In this document: positions 1,366-46,572 of the stretch, one piece after another
Numbering within the stretch: the stretch's first letter is position 1
Layout of the letters: every line of letters begins with the position of its first letter
Origin: Dehalococcoidia bacterium
Lineage (GTDB): Bacteria > Chloroflexota > Dehalococcoidia > Lucifugimonadales > GCA-2712585
DNA: 64,000 bases
Reading direction: 5' to 3'
Assembly: GCA_965238215.1 (NCBI GenBank)
Contig: OZ250180.1
Span: 1,765,524 to 1,829,523, forward strand
Notes under the pieces: model-generated
The model's input: only the letters and a program-made list of their open reading frames with translations
The model's database searches: none
Told to the model about the DNA's origin: nothing
Position numbers and translations under genes: made by a program

Positions 1366-2355
1366 GTGTGCGCTATGCTTCGAACGGGCTTCATATTCCT
1401 TGCGCTTTTGGGCATCTGCCTTCTGGCTGCCTGCGGTCCCAAGGACAAACGCGTCGTCTTCGTTTCTGAACGGGGCGGCGACCTGATGGCCTACACCATG
1501 GCTTCCGACGGCTCGGAAGTTTCCAGCCTACCCTCCGGCGGCGATGAAAGCGTCGCTCCTAGCTGGTCGCCCACTAGAAATCACGTGGCCCTACTCTCTG
1601 TTGACGACGAGGACTCCACCCTCCACATCCTCGCCCAGGAAGGCGACGACTGGGAATCCTGCACCGTCGACGAAGACCAGGTCCTGCACTACAGCTGGGA
1701 CCCCAAGGGAGAGCGCGTAGCCTTCTTGGTGGGAACCTCGGAGGATGCGGACGTCTTCATTACCGACGTGAAGTGCTCTACCGTAGAGCCTCTCACCTAC
1801 GATGGCGGAGCCATGACCTTGGGCAACTGGTCTGAAGATGGCGACTGGGTGGCCTATTCCATCTTGAGCGAGGACGACCAGGGTATATTTCTCCGCAATC
1901 CCAGCGGCGTGGACAGAAAGCGAATCAGCGACAAGGCCGCCACTCAGCTGGCCTATGCGCCCCGGGGCGGCGGCTTTGCCTTCATGACCCAAGACGACGA
2001 GGAAACCCGCATCTGGGCAACCGAAAAAGCCGACCAGCCTCCTGTCAGTATCACCAACCAGGCAGTCTCCGGCTCCACCTTTGCCTGGTCTCCCGACGGC
2101 TCCCGAATAGTCTTCGTCTCTGACCGGGACGGCGATCCGGAGATATATACCATGAAAGCTAACGGCTCCGACCTGCGGCAGCTGACCCAAAATGAGATTG
2201 CCGACACCCTGCCCTCCTGGTCTTCCAATGGGAAGCGTATAATCTTCGTTTCGGACCTTCACGGCAATGGGGAGATCTTCACCATGGACGACGACGGGTC
2301 CAACCAGCAGCGCCTCACCAAGAACGACTATAGCGACACGCAACCCCGCTGGTAG
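1366..2355 (+). CDS. TolB-like PD40 beta-propeller lipoprotein
   Basis: Lipoprotein-type signal peptide (LALLGICLLAACG) followed by repeated W-SPDG..IVF.SDRDG..EIY PD40 motifs. Confidence 0.8.
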   Translation: MCAMLRTGFIFLALLGICLLAACGPKDKRVVFVSERGGDLMAYTMASDGSEVSSLPSGGDESVAPSWSPTRNHVALLSVDDEDSTLHILAQEGDDWESCTVDEDQVLHYSWDPKGERVAFLVGTSEDADVFITDVKCSTVEPLTYDGGAMTLGNWSEDGDWVAYSILSEDDQGIFLRNPSGVDRKRISDKAATQLAYAPRGGGFAFMTQDDEETRIWATEKADQPPVSITNQAVSGSTFAWSPDGSRIVFVSDRDGDPEIYTMKANGSDLRQLTQNEIADTLPSWSSNGKRIIFVSDLHGNGEIFTMDDDGSNQQRLTKNDYSDTQPRW

Positions 2356-5651: not shown

Positions 5652-6338
5652 ATGATCATCCTCGAAGGGGTCTCCAAGGTGTACAACCTGGGCAGCGTAC
5701 AGGTCACCGCCCTCGATGGCGTGGACCTTTCTATCGCTCGCGGAGAAATGGTCGCGGTCATGGGCGTCTCCGGCTCCGGCAAGTCCACGCTGATGAACAT
5801 CATCGGCTGCCTTGACGTTCCCACCTCCGGCTCCTATTCCCTGGACGGCGAGGACGTGGGCGCGTTGGGTGACGACCAGTTGGCCTACATTCGTAACCGG
5901 AAAGTCGGCTTCGTCTTCCAGACCTACAACCTGCTGCCCCGTCTCAGCGCCCTGGCCAACGTGGAGCTTCCCCTCCTCTACGGGCGGGACCGGCGGCGGC
6001 GACGCCAACGCGCCCGAGAAGCCCTTGAGCACGTCGGCCTCGGTGACCGGATGCGCCACCGGCCCGCCGAGCTCTCCGGCGGTCAGCAGCAGCGCGTCGG
6101 CATAGCCCGAGCCCTCGTCAAAGAACCCGCCATCCTCCTCGCCGACGAACCAACAGGCAACCTCGACAGCCGTTCCAGCGAAGAGATTATCGATATTCTC
6201 ACCCGCCTTAACCGGGAGGAGGGCATCACTGTAATCGTCGTCACCCACGCCCCCGAGATAGCTGCCCGCACCAACCGAGTTATTTCCATGCTGGACGGGC
6301 GAATCGTGGGCGACAAAACCACGGAGTTGGCCCGCTAG
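5652..6338 (+). CDS. ABC transporter ATP-binding protein (MacB/LolD type)
   Basis: Walker [10 protein letters not shown], signature LSGGQQQRV, Walker B ILLADEPT. Confidence 0.9.
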
Positions 6339-7583
6339 ATGAACCCGCTGGACACCGCACGATCCGCCCTGACGTCCCTCTGGGCCAGTAAGCTCCGCTC
6401 CAGCCTCACCGTATTGGGCATCGTCATAGGCGTTGCCGCCGTCATCTCCCTCATGTCCATCGGCCGGGGAGCGCAAGCCTCCATAACCGAGACCATCCAA
6501 TCCCTGGGCACCAACCTCCTCTTCGTCCAGCCCGGCGCGTCCAGCTTTGGCGGCATCTTCTTCGGCCAGGGTTCGGCTTCCACCCTGACCCTGGAGGACG
6601 CCGAGGCCATTGCCGACTCTGCTGCAATTCCCTCTGTTTCAGCTGTGGCCCCGGAGTTAAGCACGTCCGGCCAGCTAGTCTACGGCAGGCAAAACACCTT
6701 CACTCAGGTTCTGGGCGTAACCCCCGAATATATGGACGTGCGTAACCTGGAACTCGCTACCGGCGCCTTCATCTCCGAGGGTCACGTGGTCAACCGCTCC
6801 GAGGTAATCGTACTTGGGTCCTTCGTTTCCGAGACCCTCTTCGGTCTCCGCGACCCCGTAGGACAGACCGTCAAGGTAAACGGTCGCCCCTTCACGATTA
6901 TCGGAGTGCTGGATTCCATGGGCGGCGGCCCCTTTGGCCTCTTTGACGACCAGGTCTTGGTGCCCATAACCACCGCCTACTACCGGCTCGCTTCCGAGCG
7001 CACCACCCAGGGGGACGTGACTGTCAACCTAATCAGCGTCCAGGTGCAGGACGAGTCCCTCATGGACCAAGCCGAGGCGCAAATCGCCACTCTCCTCCGT
7101 CTGCGCCACCGTGTGACGGGGGAAGATGACTTCACCATCAACAACCAGCAGGACACCCTGGAAACCCTGGAGGAGACCACCGACACTTTTGTAATGTTTC
7201 TCGGTGCCATTGCAGGCATATCCCTGCTTGTGGGCGGCATCGGCATAATGAACATAATGCTGGTCTCTGTCACGGAGCGCACCCGGGAGATCGGCATCCG
7301 CAAGGCTATGGGCGCCACCCGCCGAGACATCCTGGTGCAGTTCATGGCGGAGGCCATCGTTCTCAGCATCGGCGGCGGCGGCATCGGCGTTCTGGCGGGC
7401 GTGACCCTCTCCCGTCTCATCGATGGCCGTACCCTCTTTGGACAGGCCTTTGAAACGGTGTTCAGCGGAGATATCGTCATCCTGGCCCTACTTGTATCCG
7501 CCGCCATCGGCCTGTTCTTTGGCATCTACCCCGCCATGCGCGCAGCGCGGCAGCATCCCATCGACGCCCTGCGGTACGAATAA
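6339..7583 (+). CDS. ABC transporter permease, FtsX/MacB-like
   Basis: N-terminal TM, large periplasmic domain and C-terminal FtsX-type helices (REIGIRKAMGA motif). The start abuts the ATPase stop. Confidence 0.9.
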   Translation: MNPLDTARSALTSLWASKLRSSLTVLGIVIGVAAVISLMSIGRGAQASITETIQSLGTNLLFVQPGASSFGGIFFGQGSASTLTLEDAEAIADSAAIPSVSAVAPELSTSGQLVYGRQNTFTQVLGVTPEYMDVRNLELATGAFISEGHVVNRSEVIVLGSFVSETLFGLRDPVGQTVKVNGRPFTIIGVLDSMGGGPFGLFDDQVLVPITTAYYRLASERTTQGDVTVNLISVQVQDESLMDQAEAQIATLLRLRHRVTGEDDFTINNQQDTLETLEETTDTFVMFLGAIAGISLLVGGIGIMNIMLVSVTERTREIGIRKAMGATRRDILVQFMAEAIVLSIGGGGIGVLAGVTLSRLIDGRTLFGQAFETVFSGDIVILALLVSAAIGLFFGIYPAMRAARQHPIDALRYE

Positions 7584-7680
7584 GAGGGGAAGGTCCCGTC
7601 AGTATCGTGCAAATCTCACCGATAGTAGATAGACCACCCCAAACCCTTGGGGAGCGCCTTCCAAAGGAGAAGAAAATCTC

Positions 7681-39445: not shown

Positions 39446-39455
39446 CCCCTACCCT

Positions 39456-39905
39456 CCCGTGTCCTCGCGTCGAGAGCTTGCCCCCGCGAAGGCGGGGGGC
39501 GGGGACCCATCCCCAGTGCCATCCGACCATTGCCATAAATCCCCCTTCACTGCTACCATCCCCCCATGAAAACCCACCCGCCTCAGTTGCACCCATCATT
39601 CGTTTCCACCACAGAAAAAAACGAATCCCCCTGAAACGAATAATCCCACCCCCCGTGTCCTCGCGTCGAGAGCTTGCCCCCGCGAAGGCGGGGGGCGGGG
39701 ACCCATCCCCAGTGCCATCCGACCATTGCCATAAATCCCCCTTCACTGCTACCATCCCCCCATGAAAACCCACCCGCCTCAGCTGCACCCATCATTCGTT
39801 TCCACCACAGAAAAAAACGAATCCCCCTGAAACGAATAATCCCACCCCCCGTGTCCTCGCGCGAGAGCTTGCCCCCGCGAAGGCGGGGGGCGGGGACCCA
39901 TCCCC
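39456..39905. repeat. 2.3 tandem copies of a 196-bp unit
   Basis: Units start at 39456, 39652 and 39848. The two full copies differ at one base (cagttgc vs cagctgc). Each contains the hairpin GCCCCCGC-gaag-GCGGGGGC. Confidence 0.95.
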
Positions 39906-40007: not shown

Positions 40008-40460
40008 ATGGAATGTCCACGCTGCAAGGGCCACGATTTGATGGTGCGAGACCATCTCGGCATTGAGGTAGACGCCTGTAGAAACTGCCAAGGCATGTGG
40101 CTGGACTACCAGGAATTGGACCAGCTGGAAGATCGTGTATTGGACGATGACTCTGTGAAGGGCAGTATGGTCTACGCCCAACGGGCCAGCGACATCTCCT
40201 GCCCCAAGTGTGCCCGGCGGATGACAACCTTCAACTACAGGGCCTACGACCTGCCTATCGACTTCTGCGTGGACGGCCACGGCTTTTGGCTGGACGCCGG
40301 CGAGGAGAAGCGGGTGCTGGAGCTCATGAAGAAGCGTATCAAGGACCTGAAGCGGGTCTCGTCCGCCGAGGGCGAGTGGGCCAATTTCCTGAAGGGGTTG
40401 GCCTCCGGTAAGTCCTCCTCCGGAGGGCTCATGGGCAAAATCAAAGGCTGGATCGCGTAA
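40008..40460 (+). CDS. double zinc-ribbon protein (zf-TFIIB-like x2)
   Basis: CPRC...CRNCQGMWLD and CPKC...CVDGHGFWLD repeats, with a basic/Gly-rich tail. Confidence 0.75.
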   Translation: MECPRCKGHDLMVRDHLGIEVDACRNCQGMWLDYQELDQLEDRVLDDDSVKGSMVYAQRASDISCPKCARRMTTFNYRAYDLPIDFCVDGHGFWLDAGEEKRVLELMKKRIKDLKRVSSAEGEWANFLKGLASGKSSSGGLMGKIKGWIA

Positions 40461-40530
40461 TAGTAGCCGGTCTTCGCCCTCGCCACCCAGCCCGTAGGGG
40501 CGACCCTTGTGATCGCCCTCCCACCCCCAG

Positions 40531-40850
40531 CCCGTAGGGGCGGTTCGCGAGCCGCCCGCTTCCTCTCTTGTCCTCGCGAATAGCCTGCCCTCGTGAAGAC
40601 GGGGGCGGGGACCCATCTTCTCCCCCCGTAGGGGCGGTTCGCGAGCCGCCCGCTTCCTCTCTTGTCCTCGCGAATAGCCTGCCCTCGTGAAGACGGGGGC
40701 GGGGACCCATCTTCTCCCCCCGTAGGGGCGGTTCGCGAGCCGCCCGCTTCCTCTCTTGTCCTCGCGAATAGCCTGCCCTCGTCAAGACGGGGGCAGGGAC
40801 CCATCTTCTCCCTCTCTTAGGGGCGGTTTGCGAACCGCCCTTCTCTCGTC
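40531..40850. repeat. about 3.4 tandem copies of a 94-bp unit
   Basis: ccgtaggggcggttcgcgagccgccc...tgtcctcgcgaatagcctgccctcgtgaagacgggggcggggaccc recurs at 40532, 40626 and 40720, with a partial copy at ~40818. Lies between convergent genes. Confidence 0.95.
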
Positions 40851-40879
40851 CATTCCCCCCGAATCAGCCCTCTTCAGGC

Positions 40880-41568
40880 TTAAGCCTGATTTAGCAGCCC
40901 TCGCACCGTCCTGAAGACCTCGTCGAACATCTCCCTGGTGAGCCGGCCTGTCTGGGTGTTCTGCTGGCTGGGGTGATAGGAACAGACCAGAACCCTGCCG
41001 TCGGGCATCTCGTGGATCACGCCGTGGCCGAACTTGGGCCGGGGCGAAGGAGGCGTCTGCCCCTTTTCCCGCAGCAACCGCAGATAAGCGTCGAAGGCTA
41101 TCCGCCCCAGCGCGACCACCACCCGTACGTTAGCCAGCAGGTCTATCTCTCGCAGCAGGTACGGCTGGCAGTTGGCCAACTCCTCCCGCAGGGGCTTGTT
41201 TTTCGGCGGGGCGCACCGAAGGGCCGCTGTGATAAAAGCCCCCTTCAGCGACTGACCGTCGCCGCGATGCGTTGACTCTGGCTGAAGCGCGAAGCCAAAT
41301 CGATGCAGCGCGCCAAAGACCCAGTCGCCGCTGCGATCTCCGGTGAACATCCGCCCGGTGCGGTTGCCGCCGTGGCCGCGGGAGCAAGTCCCAGAAGCAT
41401 CACCTGAGCGTTGGGGTCGCCGAAGGCGGGTAGGGGCTTTCCCCAATACTCCCAATCGGCGTACATCCGCCGCTTCTTCCGGGCTACTTCCTGCCGGTAT
41501 TCCGTCAGCCGGGGGCAGCGTGTGCAGCCGATTATCCGTTGTTGCAGCTTCTCCAATTCTGTCATCAT
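40880..41568 (-). pseudogene. family-4 uracil-DNA glycosylase with a 1-nt frameshift
   Basis: N-terminal part (41245..41568: CTRCPRL...LLGLAPAA) and C-terminal part ([16 protein letters not shown]...SYHPSQQN) lie in different frames. One C appears to be missing in gcggcc|acggc at ~41373-41378. Confidence 0.8.
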
Positions 41569-41680
41569 GGCCGCAGTTGACTATACTTGCCGGTATGCCG
41601 GGGGGCAAGGCTGGGACGCCGTCGGACCATCCTCGCCGGACTCCCATGCACTGGGCTGTAGAATTAAGGAGGATAGGCTT

Positions 41681-42058
41681 ATGACCATGCAGGAGAAGAA
41701 AGAATACCTGGAGGAAATGACTCGAAAGCGGGGCTACGTTCTGGAGATGCACCGCATTATGGCGGCGGAGGACTTCGAGTGGGTGAAGAAGTACGATCCC
41801 TTCCTGGAAGCCACGTACACGAGTCAGCGGCTGTTGGACAGGAAGACCAAAGAGCTTCTGCAGATCGTCGTGGAGGCGGCCCTGCGGGCCGACGTGGAGC
41901 AGATTCAGGCCCACGTGGAAGTGGCGCTGAAGGAAGGCGCGACGCCCCGGGAAATTCTGGAAGCGTTGCAGGCCGTAGCCATGCCCATGGGAATGCTGGC
42001 CTTCCGCCGGGGGCTTCAGGCGTGGGCCGCGGCAGTGAAGCCGGAAATGGTGGAGTGA
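41681..42058 (+). CDS. carboxymuconolactone decarboxylase (AhpD-like) family protein
   Basis: AAGGAGGA SD before ATG 41681. LDRKTKELLQIVVEAALR...EILEALQVA pattern. The longer ORF from 41411 was rejected. Confidence 0.75.
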   Translation: MTMQEKKEYLEEMTRKRGYVLEMHRIMAAEDFEWVKKYDPFLEATYTSQRLLDRKTKELLQIVVEAALRADVEQIQAHVEVALKEGATPREILEALQAVAMPMGMLAFRRGLQAWAAAVKPEMVE

Positions 42059-42065
42059 GCGCCCG

Positions 42066-42311
42066 CTAAGACGCTCGTTGCCGGAGGCTCCCCACCCCCG
42101 GCTGGCAATGCCCACATCCAGCGACGTTTTTGGCGGGGGTGTTCAGGGCCTGTTCTATGGCGGCATCTACGCTGTCAAATGAACCGAACCATCGGTTGTC
42201 GTCTTTCCGAGTTCCTTTAATCCCTTGACCGTGGTTGCAAAAGCGGCAATCCCCATCGTGGACGCGCGCTCGTTTTGTCGGTGAATCCTCGTAAACCCAA
42301 AAGGTCTTCAA
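42066..42311 (-). CDS. stand-alone ~80-aa Cys4 domain protein (uncharacterised)
   Basis: LKTFWVYEDSPTKRARVHDGDCRFCNHGQG...WFGSFDSVDAAIEQAL...GCGHCQP. It is a paralogue of the C-terminal 80 aa of the upstream dehydrogenase. TTG start is tentative. Confidence 0.55.
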   Translation of the reverse strand: MKTFWVYEDSPTKRARVHDGDCRFCNHGQGIKGTRKDDNRWFGSFDSVDAAIEQALNTPAKNVAGCGHCQPGVGSLRQRAS

Positions 42312-42328
42312 ACCCTTACGCTCTCTTC

Positions 42329-43666
42329 CTATGGGCTCCGCTGCCGGAGGGTCCCCACCCCCGGTTGGCAAACGCCGCATCCGGCCACGTCTACGGCGCG
42401 GGTGTCCAGCACCTGTTCGATGGCCGCATCTATCCTTGTGAAGGGTCCATACCATCGACCGCTCGGCGCCGTCGAATCGTGGAGCCCTTGACCGTCGTTG
42501 CAGAAGGAACATTCGGCCACGTGGATACGCGCCCGGCGTCTCGGCAAGTTTTCGTAAACCCACCAGGTCTTTGAGGCGGCCTCTCCCCGTCCGTCCAGAG
42601 CCTGCAGCGCCGCGTCCCCCACCTCCTCCGTGGATGCGCCTCCGCCCAGGTCCGGCGTAAGCGCCTCTCCAGCTTCCAGAGTCTCGACCACCGCCCTTTC
42701 CAGCGCGGCGGCGGCGTCTTCCTGCCCCAAATGCCGGACCATCATCGCGCCCGAAAGAATCATCGCCAGCGGATTGGCCACCCCCTTGCCCGTGATGTCC
42801 GGCGCGCTCCCATGGACGGGCTCGAACATGGAGGGAAACCGGCGCTCCGGGTCTATGTTGCCACTGGCGGCCAACCCCATGCTGCCTGTAATAATCGCGC
42901 CTATGTCCGTCAGTATGTCGCCGAATAAATTACTTGCCACCACCACGTCGAAGTCCTCCGGCCGGCGAATGAAGTCCATGCAGGCCGCGTCCACCAGCAG
43001 CGACTCCGTGGCCACGTCCGAAAACTCTCGGGCCACCTCTTCGAACACCCTGTCCCAGAGCACCATCCCGTACCCCATGGCGTTGGACTTCGTGACCGAT
43101 GTCACCTTCCCTCGTCGGCCCGGTTGCTGGGCTAACTTAAAGGCGAACCTGATGACCCGCTCGCAGCCGTGGCGGGTGAACACGGACGTCTGGGCCGCCA
43201 TCTCCTGGGGCGTGCCCTCGTAGTGAAAGCCGCCCACGTTGGCGTATTCGCCCTCGGTGTTCTCCCGGATGACCACCATGTCGATGTCCCGCGCCTTCTT
43301 GCCGCTGAGGGGTGATCTTACACCCGGGTAGAGCAGGCTAGGCCTCATGCACACGTACTGGTCGAAGCCGCGGCGGATGGGCAGCAGCAGGTTGTTCAGG
43401 GTCACGTGGTCGTGAATCTCCGGGTGTCCCACTGCGCCGAAGTAGATGGCGTCAAAGGGCCGAAGAGTATCCAGCCCGTCTTCCGGCATCATGCGTCCGT
43501 GCTGGAAATAGTAGTCGGACCCCCAGGGCATGTGGGTAAACTCCCAGCCGAAGTCGAAGCGCCGTCCCAGTCCATCAAGGACGCGCAAGCCCTGGGCAAT
43601 GACCTCAGGGCCGATGCCGTCTCCGGGTATGACCGCAACCCGATAGGTGGTCAATTTCCGATCCAA
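42329..43666 (-). CDS. tartrate dehydrogenase/decarboxylase (isocitrate/isopropylmalate DH family) fused to a C-terminal Cys4 domain
   Basis: VIPGDGIGPEV, IRENTEGEY and NLFGDILTD motifs over ~360 aa, then an extra KTWWVYENLPRRRARIHVAECSFCNDGQG...GCGVCQP. Confidence 0.85.
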   Translation of the reverse strand: MDRKLTTYRVAVIPGDGIGPEVIAQGLRVLDGLGRRFDFGWEFTHMPWGSDYYFQHGRMMPEDGLDTLRPFDAIYFGAVGHPEIHDHVTLNNLLLPIRRGFDQYVCMRPSLLYPGVRSPLSGKKARDIDMVVIRENTEGEYANVGGFHYEGTPQEMAAQTSVFTRHGCERVIRFAFKLAQQPGRRGKVTSVTKSNAMGYGMVLWDRVFEEVAREFSDVATESLLVDAACMDFIRRPEDFDVVVASNLFGDILTDIGAIITGSMGLAASGNIDPERRFPSMFEPVHGSAPDITGKGVANPLAMILSGAMMVRHLGQEDAAAALERAVVETLEAGEALTPDLGGGASTEEVGDAALQALDGRGEAASKTWWVYENLPRRRARIHVAECSFCNDGQGLHDSTAPSGRWYGPFTRIDAAIEQVLDTRAVDVAGCGVCQPGVGTLRQRSP

Positions 43667-43735: not shown

Positions 43736-44923
43736 CTAAGCAGCGGCGAGCGTCTTGCTCGCGGCGGCCACACCGGCTCCTGCCGGGACCTCATAGCCCT
43801 CCTTGGGCAGAATCTCCTCAAGGGCCGAGAGTAGCAGCAGCAGGTTTGCGCCGGTGCTGGCCTCTCCCATCAGTCCGATGCGCCAGATCTTACCGGCGAA
43901 CTGTCCCAACCCACGGGAAATTTCAACGAGATAATCGTTAGCCAACCGTGCACGTACCCGGGCTTCGTCAATCCCCTCGGGGATGGCCACGGGGGTAATC
44001 TGGGCTAGCCGGTGATTCTCGTCGGAGATCACGGAAAGGCCCAATGCCTCCAGGCCAGAGCGAAGCGCCGCGGCATTTCGCTGATGTCGCTCGTATCGCG
44101 AAGCCAACCCCTCGTCCAGCACCACCCTCAGGCCCTCGTAGAGGGCGTACAGGCTGCTTATGGGCACAGTATGGTGGTAAACATGGTCTTTGCCCCAGTA
44201 CTCGGCAATTTGGGGGATGTTCAGATACCACGTAGATGGGGGTGCGCTGCGGTTGTTCATGGCCTCCAGCGCGGCCTGGCTGACGGCAACGGGCGCAAGC
44301 CCCGGTGGGCAGCTGAGGCACTTCTGCGACGCGCTTGAAACGTAGTCGATGCCCCAATCGTCTACGGCCACCTCGCTTCCGCCGAAGGACGTAACCGCGT
44401 CGACGAAGAACAGAGCATCATGCTCCTTTGCCATGCGGGACACTTCTGTTAGTGGCTGGCCGATGCCCGTGGAGGTCTCGGCGTGGACCATGCCGACGAG
44501 CTTCACCGACTTGTGCTTCTTGAGCTCGGCCTCTATGGCTGCGGGGTCCAGGGGTTTCCCCCACTCGCCCTCGACGGTGATCACCTGAGCGCCCTGGCGC
44601 CTGGCCATCTCCACCATGCGCTGGCAGAAGAAGCCGTAGGAGCCTATGATCGCCACGTCCCCGGGTTCCAGCAGGCTGGCCATGCCGGCCTCAATGCCCG
44701 CCGAGCCTGTGGCTGATAGGGCCATGGTCAGAGATTCCTGGGTCTGGAACACTTCCGAAAGCATAGCGGCTATGCCGTCGATGACGGGTATGAAGACGGC
44801 CTCGCCGTAGCCGACGACGGGGGTTTGCATGGCTTTGTAGACACGCGGATGGACGTTGACGGGGCCGGTGCTGAGTAGCACCCTGGCCGGCATGTTTAGC
44901 TCTGGATAACTATTCTGGACCAT
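43736..44923 (-). CDS. class-V aminotransferase (alanine-glyoxylate/serine-pyruvate type)
   Basis: SASQKCL PLP-lysine block. 395 aa. Confidence 0.9.
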   Translation of the reverse strand: MVQNSYPELNMPARVLLSTGPVNVHPRVYKAMQTPVVGYGEAVFIPVIDGIAAMLSEVFQTQESLTMALSATGSAGIEAGMASLLEPGDVAIIGSYGFFCQRMVEMARRQGAQVITVEGEWGKPLDPAAIEAELKKHKSVKLVGMVHAETSTGIGQPLTEVSRMAKEHDALFFVDAVTSFGGSEVAVDDWGIDYVSSASQKCLSCPPGLAPVAVSQAALEAMNNRSAPPSTWYLNIPQIAEYWGKDHVYHHTVPISSLYALYEGLRVVLDEGLASRYERHQRNAAALRSGLEALGLSVISDENHRLAQITPVAIPEGIDEARVRARLANDYLVEISRGLGQFAGKIWRIGLMGEASTGANLLLLLSALEEILPKEGYEVPAGAGVAAASKTLAAA

Positions 44924-45135
44924 CTGCTCTCCCTTATTTTTCCCTTTTCACACCAGCGAAGAGGGTTGATAGTCGGCCCTCTTCGCCCGCACCTGCGACA
45001 AAGCAAGATGCCCTAGTCTTGGGGAATGGCGCCCCCACTTTGGCCATCACCGATGCTCTAAGTTGGTGGGGCACTAGGCTTGCACAGCCTATCAGCGAGG
45101 TTTAGGGGTGTCAAGGAAAGGAGGAGAACGCCCAT

Positions 45136-46572
45136 CTATCTGATGGGACCCTTGAGAACCGCCGGGCTCAGCTTGCGCGGTATCAGTCGGCCGTGGCTCG
45201 TATCTCCCATGAACCGCCCGTCCTTCACCACAACCCTACCGCGCAGCGTCACTACCGTGGGCCAACCCTGCACCTCCCAGCCCTCCCACGGGTTATAGTC
45301 CCCCAGATGTAGGTCGTTCATCGAGAGGGTCTTCCGCGCGTTGGGGTCCATTACGACGATGTCTGCGTCGCTGCCCGCTGATATAGCGCCCTTCCGAGGG
45401 TAGAAGCCCAGGAGCTTGGCCGGGTTCGTGGAAGTGATGGCGGCGTATCGCTCCAAGGACATTCCTTGCTTTACCACCCCTTCCGAGTAGGCAACACCCA
45501 TGCGTATTTCAATGCCGATGTTGCCGCCCTGCACGTCCACCACCGTGCGACCCTTTGTCTTGTCGGCGTAGCTGGTGCCGATGGCGTCGGTTGCCAGGAT
45601 GTTCAGGTCTCCCCGTGTCAGCCCATCCCAGAGCCGCAGCCTATCCGTCTCCGACTTGGTGGAGGGGTAGGTGTGGTACTTCATGCCGTCATGTTCCTTG
45701 TAGTTCTCGGAGTTAAAGGAACAGTAGAGAAGAATAGTCTCACCGTCCACGGGGTGCCCCTTGGCCCTCGACTCGGCGATGGCGTCCACACCCTCGCTCG
45801 CGCTCGTGTGAACGATGTACATGGCGGCGCCGGTGTGCTCCGCAACTATTATGGCCCGACGGACCGCCAGGTCCTCCGATAGGTTTGAGCGAATCTTGGG
45901 CAGATAGTGCCAGGCCCACTCCTCCCGCTCCCGCGCCAGCTCGTAATTCCACTGGACCACTTCGTCGTCCTCGGCGTGAATGGCCACAATGCCGCCGTGC
46001 TTCGCCGCCTGCTCCATGACTGATACCAGCTGTCCGGTGCTTATCATCGTTATTGGCCGGTTGGGTCTGGGCGCGTGGTTGGTGGTGTAGACCTTGATGC
46101 TGGGAAAACCGGCGTCTATGAGTTCCCTGATCCGGGGGATATTTCGCGTCGTGGTGGAAGGGCCGTGAAAGCTGCAATGGAAGGAGTAGTCGATGTACAT
46201 CCGCCCCGGGAACAGATCAGCGTGGGTGTGCACCGCCTCCAGAACGTCGTCGCTACCGGGTTGAGTGGCTATGGCGAAGTCCATCATGGTGGTCGTGCCG
46301 CCCCACAGCGCTGCCAGCGACAGATCTTCCGGGCCCGCAGTGGTAGTGTCTCCCCAGATCCCATCCCGGTGGGGAAATCCCACGTGGGTGTGAGCCTCAA
46401 CGCCGCCCGGAACAACCAACTTGCCCGTTGCATCGATGATTTCGATGGCCTCGCTGCCCAGTGAGCCGGGCAATACTACGCCGACTATCTTTTCGCCTTG
46501 GACGGCCACGTCCCACTGGCCCACGCCGGTGGGAGTGACCACCTGTCCGCCTCGAATGAGCAGGTCTAGCAT
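45136..46572 (-). CDS. dihydropyrimidinase/D-hydantoinase
   Basis: PGGVEAHTHV HxH site, carboxylated-Lys block SIKVYT. 478 aa. Confidence 0.9.
   Translation of the reverse strand: MLDLLIRGGQVVTPTGVGQWDVAVQGEKIVGVVLPGSLGSEAIEIIDATGKLVVPGGVEAHTHVGFPHRDGIWGDTTTAGPEDLSLAALWGGTTTMMDFAIATQPGSDDVLEAVHTHADLFPGRMYIDYSFHCSFHGPSTTTRNIPRIRELIDAGFPSIKVYTTNHAPRPNRPITMISTGQLVSVMEQAAKHGGIVAIHAEDDEVVQWNYELAREREEWAWHYLPKIRSNLSEDLAVRRAIIVAEHTGAAMYIVHTSASEGVDAIAESRAKGHPVDGETILLYCSFNSENYKEHDGMKYHTYPSTKSETDRLRLWDGLTRGDLNILATDAIGTSYADKTKGRTVVDVQGGNIGIEIRMGVAYSEGVVKQGMSLERYAAITSTNPAKLLGFYPRKGAISAGSDADIVVMDPNARKTLSMNDLHLGDYNPWEGWEVQGWPTVVTLRGRVVVKDGRFMGDTSHGRLIPRKLSPAVLKGPIR

Follow-up and report, generated by a model that had tools for sequence, protein, structure and literature searches.

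Several described families invite comparison with the domain treated in this article. Zinc-binding anti-sigma (ZAS) factors carry an H-x3-C-x2-C motif within all-helical domains. BsaP is a small Cys-rich helper of BioB for which a role in carrying an iron-sulfur (Fe-S) cluster is proposed (PMC11099021). Further points of comparison are the N-terminal zinc domain of Escherichia coli Ada (Ada_Zn_binding), the rubredoxins and generic zinc ribbons, the GIY-YIG and MbtH-like folds, and DUF6233 (PF19746; 59 positions), of which no mention was found in the literature searched. The domain in question occurs twice in tandem in the window, meaning the whole 64,000-nucleotide stretch of the Dehalococcoidia bacterium contig OZ250180.1 that was analyzed: once as the C-terminal tail of a tartrate dehydrogenase (TDH) and once as a free protein encoded directly downstream. 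It is a small His/Cys domain, metal-braced by the look of its conserved residues and a distant relative of a DUF family, with an unexpectedly wide set of fusions. As to its role, we see about an even chance that the unit of some 75–80 residues is an autonomously folding, metal-stabilized accessory domain serving as a portable, noncatalytic binding module. No description of it was found in searches of the literature for DUF6233, for an N-terminal extension of the Hyphomonas ATP synthase β subunit, and for Swt1-HEPN with a Zn-ribbon.

The TDH open reading frame (ORF) spans 42329..43666 on the reverse strand and encodes 445 residues, at the coordinates given by the original prediction; its TAG stop occupies 42329..42331. 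It matches the Pfam model Iso_dh over residues 10–352 (E 1.3e-95) and the NCBIfam model TIGR02089, tartrate dehydrogenase, over residues 7–356 with 477.9 bits, above the equivalog cutoff of 470.4. With this full-length match, the TDH part is complete without the tail; hence, the domain would not be part of TDH chemistry. Homologs that lack the tail measure 353–357 residues. The name that JGI and NCBI give to homologs is tartrate dehydrogenase. Compared with such ordinary TIGR02089 members, the clade of the window carries about 85 extra residues at the C terminus. Its closest orthologs are called at 436–441 residues, so that translation of the TDH may begin slightly farther downstream, within a few codons of the TTG at 43666. 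The tail and the free copy are identical at 46 of 79 positions in a gapless BLASTP alignment (58%, E 1e-36), which is far beyond chance and, with both ORFs confirmed, bears out the proposed pair of tandem copies. A scan around the two ORFs found no promoter- or terminator-like site between them, a result that is uninformative by itself; the free copy and the fused gene are probably cotranscribed.

The fusion recurs in related genomes. The arrangement is unusual, as the original prediction had held. With each prokaryotic species represented by one genome, a scan for a degenerate DNA pattern (W-V-Y-E-[ND]-x8-H-x3-C-x2-C) gave at least 119 loci. In five other metagenome-assembled genomes (MAGs) of Dehalococcoidia (L059, L064, L074, L076, and L121), a tailed TDH gene lies in a shared block with a hydantoinase, a class-V aminotransferase, and a convergent CMD-like gene. 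The order hydantoinase, aminotransferase, TDH with tail is found also in L059 and L121, and wherever the TDH fusion is found, synteny extends over the upstream block 43736..46572 of the window. A protein search with the whole ORF returned 14 closest clusters that are 83–95% identical, 436–441 residues long, and cover 97–99% of the query. Among the matches listed, full-length clusters of at most 80% identity are 339–383 residues long (mostly 353–357) with a coverage of 76–82%, and the tail is absent from them. Because of this sharp break in length and identity, the tail is a derived character of one narrow TDH clade in Dehalococcoidia rather than the result of a lost stop codon.

Both copies are under purifying selection. 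The tails, conserved in the five MAGs, share 78–89% amino acid identity at ratios of nonsynonymous to synonymous substitution (dN/dS; pairwise Nei–Gojobori) of 0.07–0.17, and the free copies share 58–63% at 0.11–0.21, with synonymous sites near saturation. The window, L059, L064, and L076 each have a free copy, which in L059 shows the same 17-nt spacing and the same TTG start as in the window. In L064, one of the closer relatives of the window, the last 58 residues of the free copy (1399-1883, reverse strand) are identical to the neighboring TDH tail, and its N terminus keeps the residues of free copies, which indicates that the two copies are homogenized by gene conversion. In the window, the fusion and its free twin are hence a selected feature and no error.

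A word-indexed homolog search with the free copy found nothing. Relatives surfaced only when 1.84 billion representative proteins were searched exhaustively with a profile. At E ≤ 1e-3, 806 clusters matched, and at E ≤ 1e-10 still 106; repeat proteins account for three false positives among the top 150 matches. The consensus reads Y-W-V-Y-E-N-x5-A-R-V-H-x3-C-x2-C-N-x-G-x-G-x~10-W-x-G-P-F-x5-A-x~14-C-x2-C-x-P. Herein, His18, Cys22, Cys66, and Cys69 are invariant among 92 sequences and Cys25 is present in 91 of them; Y7, C25, G28, G30, W41, G43, and A51 are near-invariant in the family alignment. Some 150 diverse relatives retain the ligand pattern, and the original prediction of an uncharacterized Cys-rich domain of some 80 residues therefore stands. 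Its description as a Cys4 site of two CxxC pairs holds in part: both pairs are present in the window copies, but the invariance of His18 could not be seen from the window alone, and Cys25 is dispensable in P0030, where three repeats lack it and keep the other four ligand-type residues. Because of these repeats, the metal site may be of the His-Cys3 rather than strictly of the Cys4 type. The domain would be braced by a metal, most probably zinc, held by His18, Cys22 (and Cys25) together with Cys66-x2-Cys69.

The structure of the free copy was predicted by AlphaFold2 from the 92-sequence alignment with high confidence (predicted local distance difference test [pLDDT] 93.4, predicted template modeling score 0.83); from the two window copies alone, the model is useless (pLDDT 46). 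The model contains strands 4–9, 14–19, 39–45, 62–65, and 75–77 and a helix 48–56. In the predicted fold, two strands (WVYE and ARVH) lead into the knuckle loop H-x3-C-x2-C-N-x-G-x-G, followed by the strand W-x-G-P-F, the helix, and the C-x2-C-x-P knuckle, and the metal would tie the loop after strand 2 to this C-terminal knuckle. The domain, as modeled, folds on its own, and it is under selection. Two HEPN or SPFH fusions, P0017 (residues ~190–245) and P0110, contain a second, shorter relative (YWLNMDS..LHKGSCGHV..KWKGF..RRCGDCF) that is devoid of the C-N-x-G-x-G loop and of the second Cys. It suggests a wider superfamily with a His-Cys3 core.

The domain matches no Pfam, NCBIfam, or PADLOC model at threshold, and among the PHROGs only phrog_4298 appears, insignificantly, with one copy (E 0.0067). 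The PDB holds no meaningful sequence relative, and a Foldseek search of PDB and BFVD with the AlphaFold2 model gave nothing at E ≤ 0.001. The unit thus belongs to no named family, as the original prediction had suspected. DUF6233 is the only recurrent profile signal, with sub-threshold matches in 36 of the 92 members and best E-values of 8.1e-6 for the domain only and 3.3e-6 in full proteins. The window copy scores 18.1 bits (E 0.003), and the member scores listed are 14.5–19.7 bits, all below the gathering cutoff of 27.6. The matches appear colinear: the A-R-x-H-x3-C segment aligns with model positions 8–34, and the helix with C-x2-C-x-P aligns with positions 30–54, each in different members and never within one alignment. 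Compared with DUF6233, the domain has the strand WVYE added at its N terminus and the segment C-N-x-G-x-G ... W-x-G-P-F inserted. The similarity is read as distant kinship, not as membership.

Like Ada_Zn_binding, the domain combines a small sheet with a helix. The ligand spacing is the same ([C/H]-x3-C, helix, then C-x2-C-x-P), with a His in the domain at the position of the methyl-accepting Cys38 of Ada. The Ada–DNA complex 1zgw ranks third in Foldseek at an insignificant E of 3.4 and a template modeling (TM) score of 0.30, and hhalign aligns helix and C-terminal knuckle over 27 columns (probability 5%). Membership was rejected on these scores, on the missing Pfam match, and on the His in the first ligand position. 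For AP2, hhalign pairs W-x-G-x-F..A with the strand–helix of the model (probability 41%); with 16 columns, no Pfam match, and no such structure among the Foldseek matches, an AP2- or integrase arm-type domain was rejected as well.

Rubredoxins and generic zinc ribbons share with the domain two C-x2-C knuckles, a small β-rich architecture, and the occurrence in free and fused forms. However, the two knuckles, which in rubredoxin (PF00301) are of the form C-x2-C-G, lie about 30 residues apart, and belong to an Fe(Cys)4 center, are separated by 40 residues in the domain, where a strand and a helix intervene; a His is invariant, and P0030 does without the second Cys of the first knuckle; no rubredoxin profile matches any of the 92 members at E ≤ 0.1, and this assignment was dropped. 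The best Foldseek neighbors are the I-TevI GIY-YIG domain 1mk0 (E 1.1, TM 0.30) and MbtH-like chains (TM 0.39–0.48), and in BFVD many GIY-YIG homing endonucleases (E 0.085–1); both folds likewise consist of a three-stranded sheet and a helix. GIY-YIG was rejected since the fold match is insignificant and the catalytic Arg/Glu/Asn are, by eye, absent from the conserved columns. The domain is moreover found fused to GIY-YIG nucleases and is hence not one itself. An MbtH-like identity was rejected with a TM of at most 0.48 and no sign of the signature by eye. The ZAS-type spacing H-x3-C-x2-C occurs in 91 of the 92 members, but the predicted fold is β-rich and not helical, and ZAS was not retained as a family assignment; neither was the DnaJ CxxCxGxG motif. 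The BsaP model matches one of the 92 members at E 0.004 with another Cys spacing, which is chance level.

The domain turned out to be widespread and promiscuous, beyond what could be seen from the window alone. Among 146 near-complete instances, 78 are stand-alone (proteins of at most 110 residues), 39 C-terminal, 18 N-terminal, and 11 internal. Two to three tandem copies are found in 8 of 147 proteins, including P0004 and P0010, and adjacent paralogous genes in the window, L059, L064, L076, L051, and L015. The domain is portable, separable from TDH catalysis, and often present in two or more copies, in one chain or in neighboring genes. Partners recognized by Pfam in the full proteins are Swt1-like HEPN (8), ankyrin (5), Band_7/SPFH, TIR, pentapeptide repeats, and DUF7662; by eye, GIY-YIG-type C termini (about 8; 1 by Pfam) and PD-(D/E)xK-like N termini can be added. 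Single fusions from the genome scan involve an Amdase-family enzyme, a cupin, a tyrosine recombinase (L011, with the domain N-terminal to it), and an HTH_17 domain.

A further set of fusions concerns the ATP synthase β subunit, which carries the domain at its N terminus via an Ala/Pro/Lys-rich linker in 21 alphaproteobacterial species of the Hyphomonadaceae, Ponticaulis, Parvularculaceae, and relatives (loci including L021, L026-L028, L037, L040, L049 [5807-7588], L060, L061, L073, L078, L081, L083, L096, L100, L107, and others). In Ponticaulis profundi, the fused gene is the atpD of an atpA-atpG-atpD operon. Since the canonical AtpD Met and a Shine–Dalgarno-like sequence persist inside this long ORF, a long and a short AtpD isoform are both possible. 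JGI labels several stand-alone members of about 70 residues (P0155, P0159, P0164, P0208, and P0212) as "F-type H+-transporting ATPase subunit beta", probably a systematic misannotation transferred from fused AtpD genes.

Taxonomically, the family is found mainly in Dehalococcoidia and Alphaproteobacteria, with some Actinomycetota and Binataceae. It is absent from 50,697 phage records, occurs in 1 of 72,556 plasmids, and is not found by the strict pattern in 2.9 million IMG/VR viral contigs; with these collections essentially empty, a phage origin was abandoned. Several domain genes lie close together in some Dehalococcoidia genomes, as ankyrin fusions and free copies: L015 and L042 share the contig CBDESW010000040.1, and L011 and L016 the chromosome OZ253555.1. 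In one Dehalococcoidia genome, near-identical copies adjoin a tyrosine recombinase at each of two sites, a hint of spread with a mobile element.

For about 60 stand-alone copies, the two nearest ORFs form a mixed set of mostly ordinary metabolic genes, with rhodanese (2) and FdhD (1) among them. A distinct subfamily is found in five Dehalococcoidia species, where the domain gene stands between sufC and sufB/sufD in the SUF iron-sulfur assembly operon; these copies have their own C-terminal signature, DVRDCxxCAP. Of five metagenomic contexts of domain genes, two are ordinary and three are of a mobile or defense type, the latter comprising an N6_N4 methylase, HNH, and an integrase fragment; HsdM, a CAP12-type TIR protein, and a transposase; and an integrase, an SMC-like ATPase, and GmrSD.

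In the narrow Dehalococcoidia clade, the domain has become fused to the C terminus of TDH, with a tandem duplicate 17 nt downstream; purifying selection keeps both copies, and gene conversion homogenizes them. As a portable binding module, the domain might act as a pair or a small oligomer. Tail and free copy would then form the same two-domain unit that is encoded elsewhere as a tandem repeat in one polypeptide, and this unit would tether or regulate TDH through some partner. We have less confidence in an obligatory pairing of the copies than in the general picture. L121 and L074 keep the tail and have no adjacent free copy, and most family members are single-copy stand-alone proteins, so that pairing is not obligatory. 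These two observations also weigh against a binding module of the kind proposed, as do three further points: the metal and its ligand set are deduced from conservation, family members have no known partner, ligand, or phenotype, and the fusion partners are so varied that a single shared function may not exist.

A broader version, in which one function is shared, is conceivable but improbable. Herein, core machinery would time and again have adopted, for regulation or tethering, a hitherto unrecognized and widespread metal-binding adaptor without a solved fold relative, with all hosts answering one common signal or partner. These hosts would be the F1 ATP synthase β subunit in a group of marine Alphaproteobacteria, the SUF operon and a TDH in Dehalococcoidia, and, in other organisms, effectors of the RNase, DNase, and TIR kinds; the common signal could be, for example, the cellular thiol or metal status or a shared docking surface.

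Binding of nucleic acid is another possible role that we consider unlikely. A zinc-braced sheet with a helix would read DNA or RNA, comparable to the zinc domain of Ada or to AP2 and integrase-arm domains, and it is equally doubtful that the module would bring nucleases and recombinases to nucleic acid and, as moonlighters, also enzymes. Many partners suit such a role (HEPN_Swt1 in 8+3 proteins, GIY-YIG-type, integrase, HTH_17, and, by eye, PD-(D/E)xK-like N termini), the placement ahead of the tyrosine recombinase in L011 is typical of arm-binding domains, some stand-alone copies adjoin integrase, GmrSD, or methylase/HNH genes, and the family is modestly basic with a median net charge of +3. 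The Ada-like ligand spacing, the third rank of 1zgw, and the hhalign pairing with the AP2 strand–helix point the same way. However, all of these structural and profile matches are insignificant and neither Ada_Zn_binding nor AP2 is matched in Pfam. The fusions to ATP synthase β, TDH, Amdase, cupin, SPFH, and ankyrin would be left unexplained. Ordinary metabolic genes prevail around the stand-alone copies, and the family is missing from phage records and, by strict pattern, from IMG/VR.

A third role, rather improbable, is that of an iron or Fe-S redox center, in which the Cys4/His site would bind iron or a cluster and the protein would carry electrons or iron and sulfur, with the SUF subfamily representing the ancestral function. 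The SUF-operon copies with their own signature, the rhodanese and FdhD neighbors, and the five conserved potential ligands argue for it, and BsaP offers a precedent for a small Cys-rich helper (PMC11099021). On the other side, no ferredoxin profile is matched, nor one of rubredoxin, and the BsaP match itself lies at chance level; the P0030 repeats retain only His and three Cys; ATP synthase β, HEPN, GIY-YIG, and TIR need no redox partner; NADH derived from TDH is unable to reduce such a center without a flavin; and the SUF linkage concerns only about 5 of about 60 stand-alone loci.

Even less is to be said for a redox-sensitive zinc switch, which we regard as very unlikely: the ZAS-like H-x3-C-x2-C would free zinc upon thiol oxidation and thereby change the activity or assembly of the fused partner. 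The exact spacing in all but one of the 92 members, the second C-x2-C, and the fact that one switch could suit partners as diverse as enzymes, toxins, and ATP synthase speak for it, yet the idea rests on motif resemblance, and ZAS domains are all-helical where the model here is mostly β. Finally, an artifact, i.e., a fusion from a lost stop codon or assembly error with the free copy as a decaying duplicate, has next to no probability left after the ortholog comparison: although the neighboring uracil-DNA glycosylase looks frameshifted and local sequence errors or pseudogenes thus exist, six independent genomes, complete MAG chromosomes among them, and 14 protein clusters have the fusion in frame, dN/dS stays at 0.07–0.21 for both copies, and L059 shows the free copy with its start and spacer conserved.

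The features of the locus and the SUF-operon copies are collected in the table below. Downstream of the two copies, a uracil-DNA glycosylase, family-4-like by eye from its CTRCPRL motif, is spread over two frames at 40880-41568 on the reverse strand, with its N-terminal part in the ORF 41245..41568 and its C-terminal part in the ORF 40880..42115. Its ortholog in L121 (623..1309) is a single intact ORF of 228 residues; the window copy is a pseudogene with a frameshift, unless its sequence is in error. Beyond it, a gene for a 150-residue zinc-ribbon protein (40008..40460) is flanked by two GC-rich tandem-repeat arrays, one at 39453-39905 (196 nt, about 2.3 times, 99–100% identical) and one at 40528-40864 (94 nt, 3–4 times, 98–100% identical).

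Table. Coordinates of the domain copies, their host gene, and its neighbors in the window, and of the copies in SUF operons of other Dehalococcoidia.
Feature	Coordinates	Strand	Basis
Copy 2, free 81-aa paralog, TTG start at 42311, TAG stop	42066..42311	-	Family profile match, E 3e-28
Copy 2, ligand-type codons	His 42258-42260; Cys 42246-42248; Cys 42237-42239; Cys 42114-42116; Cys 42105-42107	-	
17-nt spacer gaagagagcgtaagggt, purine-rich Shine–Dalgarno-like stretch	42312..42328	-	Read directly
Copy 1, C-terminal tail fused to TDH, residues ~365–445	42332..42574	-	Family profile match 42356..42577, E 9e-27
Copy 1, ligand-type codons	His 42521-42523; Cys 42509-42511; Cys 42500-42502; Cys 42377-42379; Cys 42368-42370	-	
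Short linker LDGRGEA, residues 358–364	42575..42595	-	Between end of TDH profile and start of domain profile
TDH catalytic part (tartrate dehydrogenase/decarboxylase), residues 1–357 of 445	42596..43666	-	Iso_dh and TIGR02089 matches
Class-V aminotransferase, upstream same-strand gene	43736..44923	-	Identity read from translation
Hydantoinase/dihydropyrimidinase-like amidohydrolase, upstream same-strand gene	45136..46572	-	Identity read from translation
SUF-operon copy, L012	3300-3527		Between sufC and sufB/sufD
SUF-operon copy, L030	4891-5109		Between sufC and sufB/sufD
SUF-operon copy, L039	3027-3263		Between sufC and sufB/sufD
SUF-operon copy, L062	4983-5198		Between sufC and sufB/sufD
SUF-operon copy, L077	7450-7668		Between sufC and sufB/sufD

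Although hundreds of protein clusters carry the domain, it has no name in any database, and no protein studied so far is known to contain it. A definition would supply annotations for many "hypothetical" proteins of 70 residues and flag unexplained extensions on two well-known enzymes. It also raises questions for the organisms concerned: whether the ATP synthase of Hyphomonadaceae bears three tethered zinc domains on its crown or comes with two β isoforms, whether the SUF operon of Dehalococcoidia includes an unrecognized small accessory factor, and why the same module is found in HEPN, GIY-YIG, and TIR effectors.

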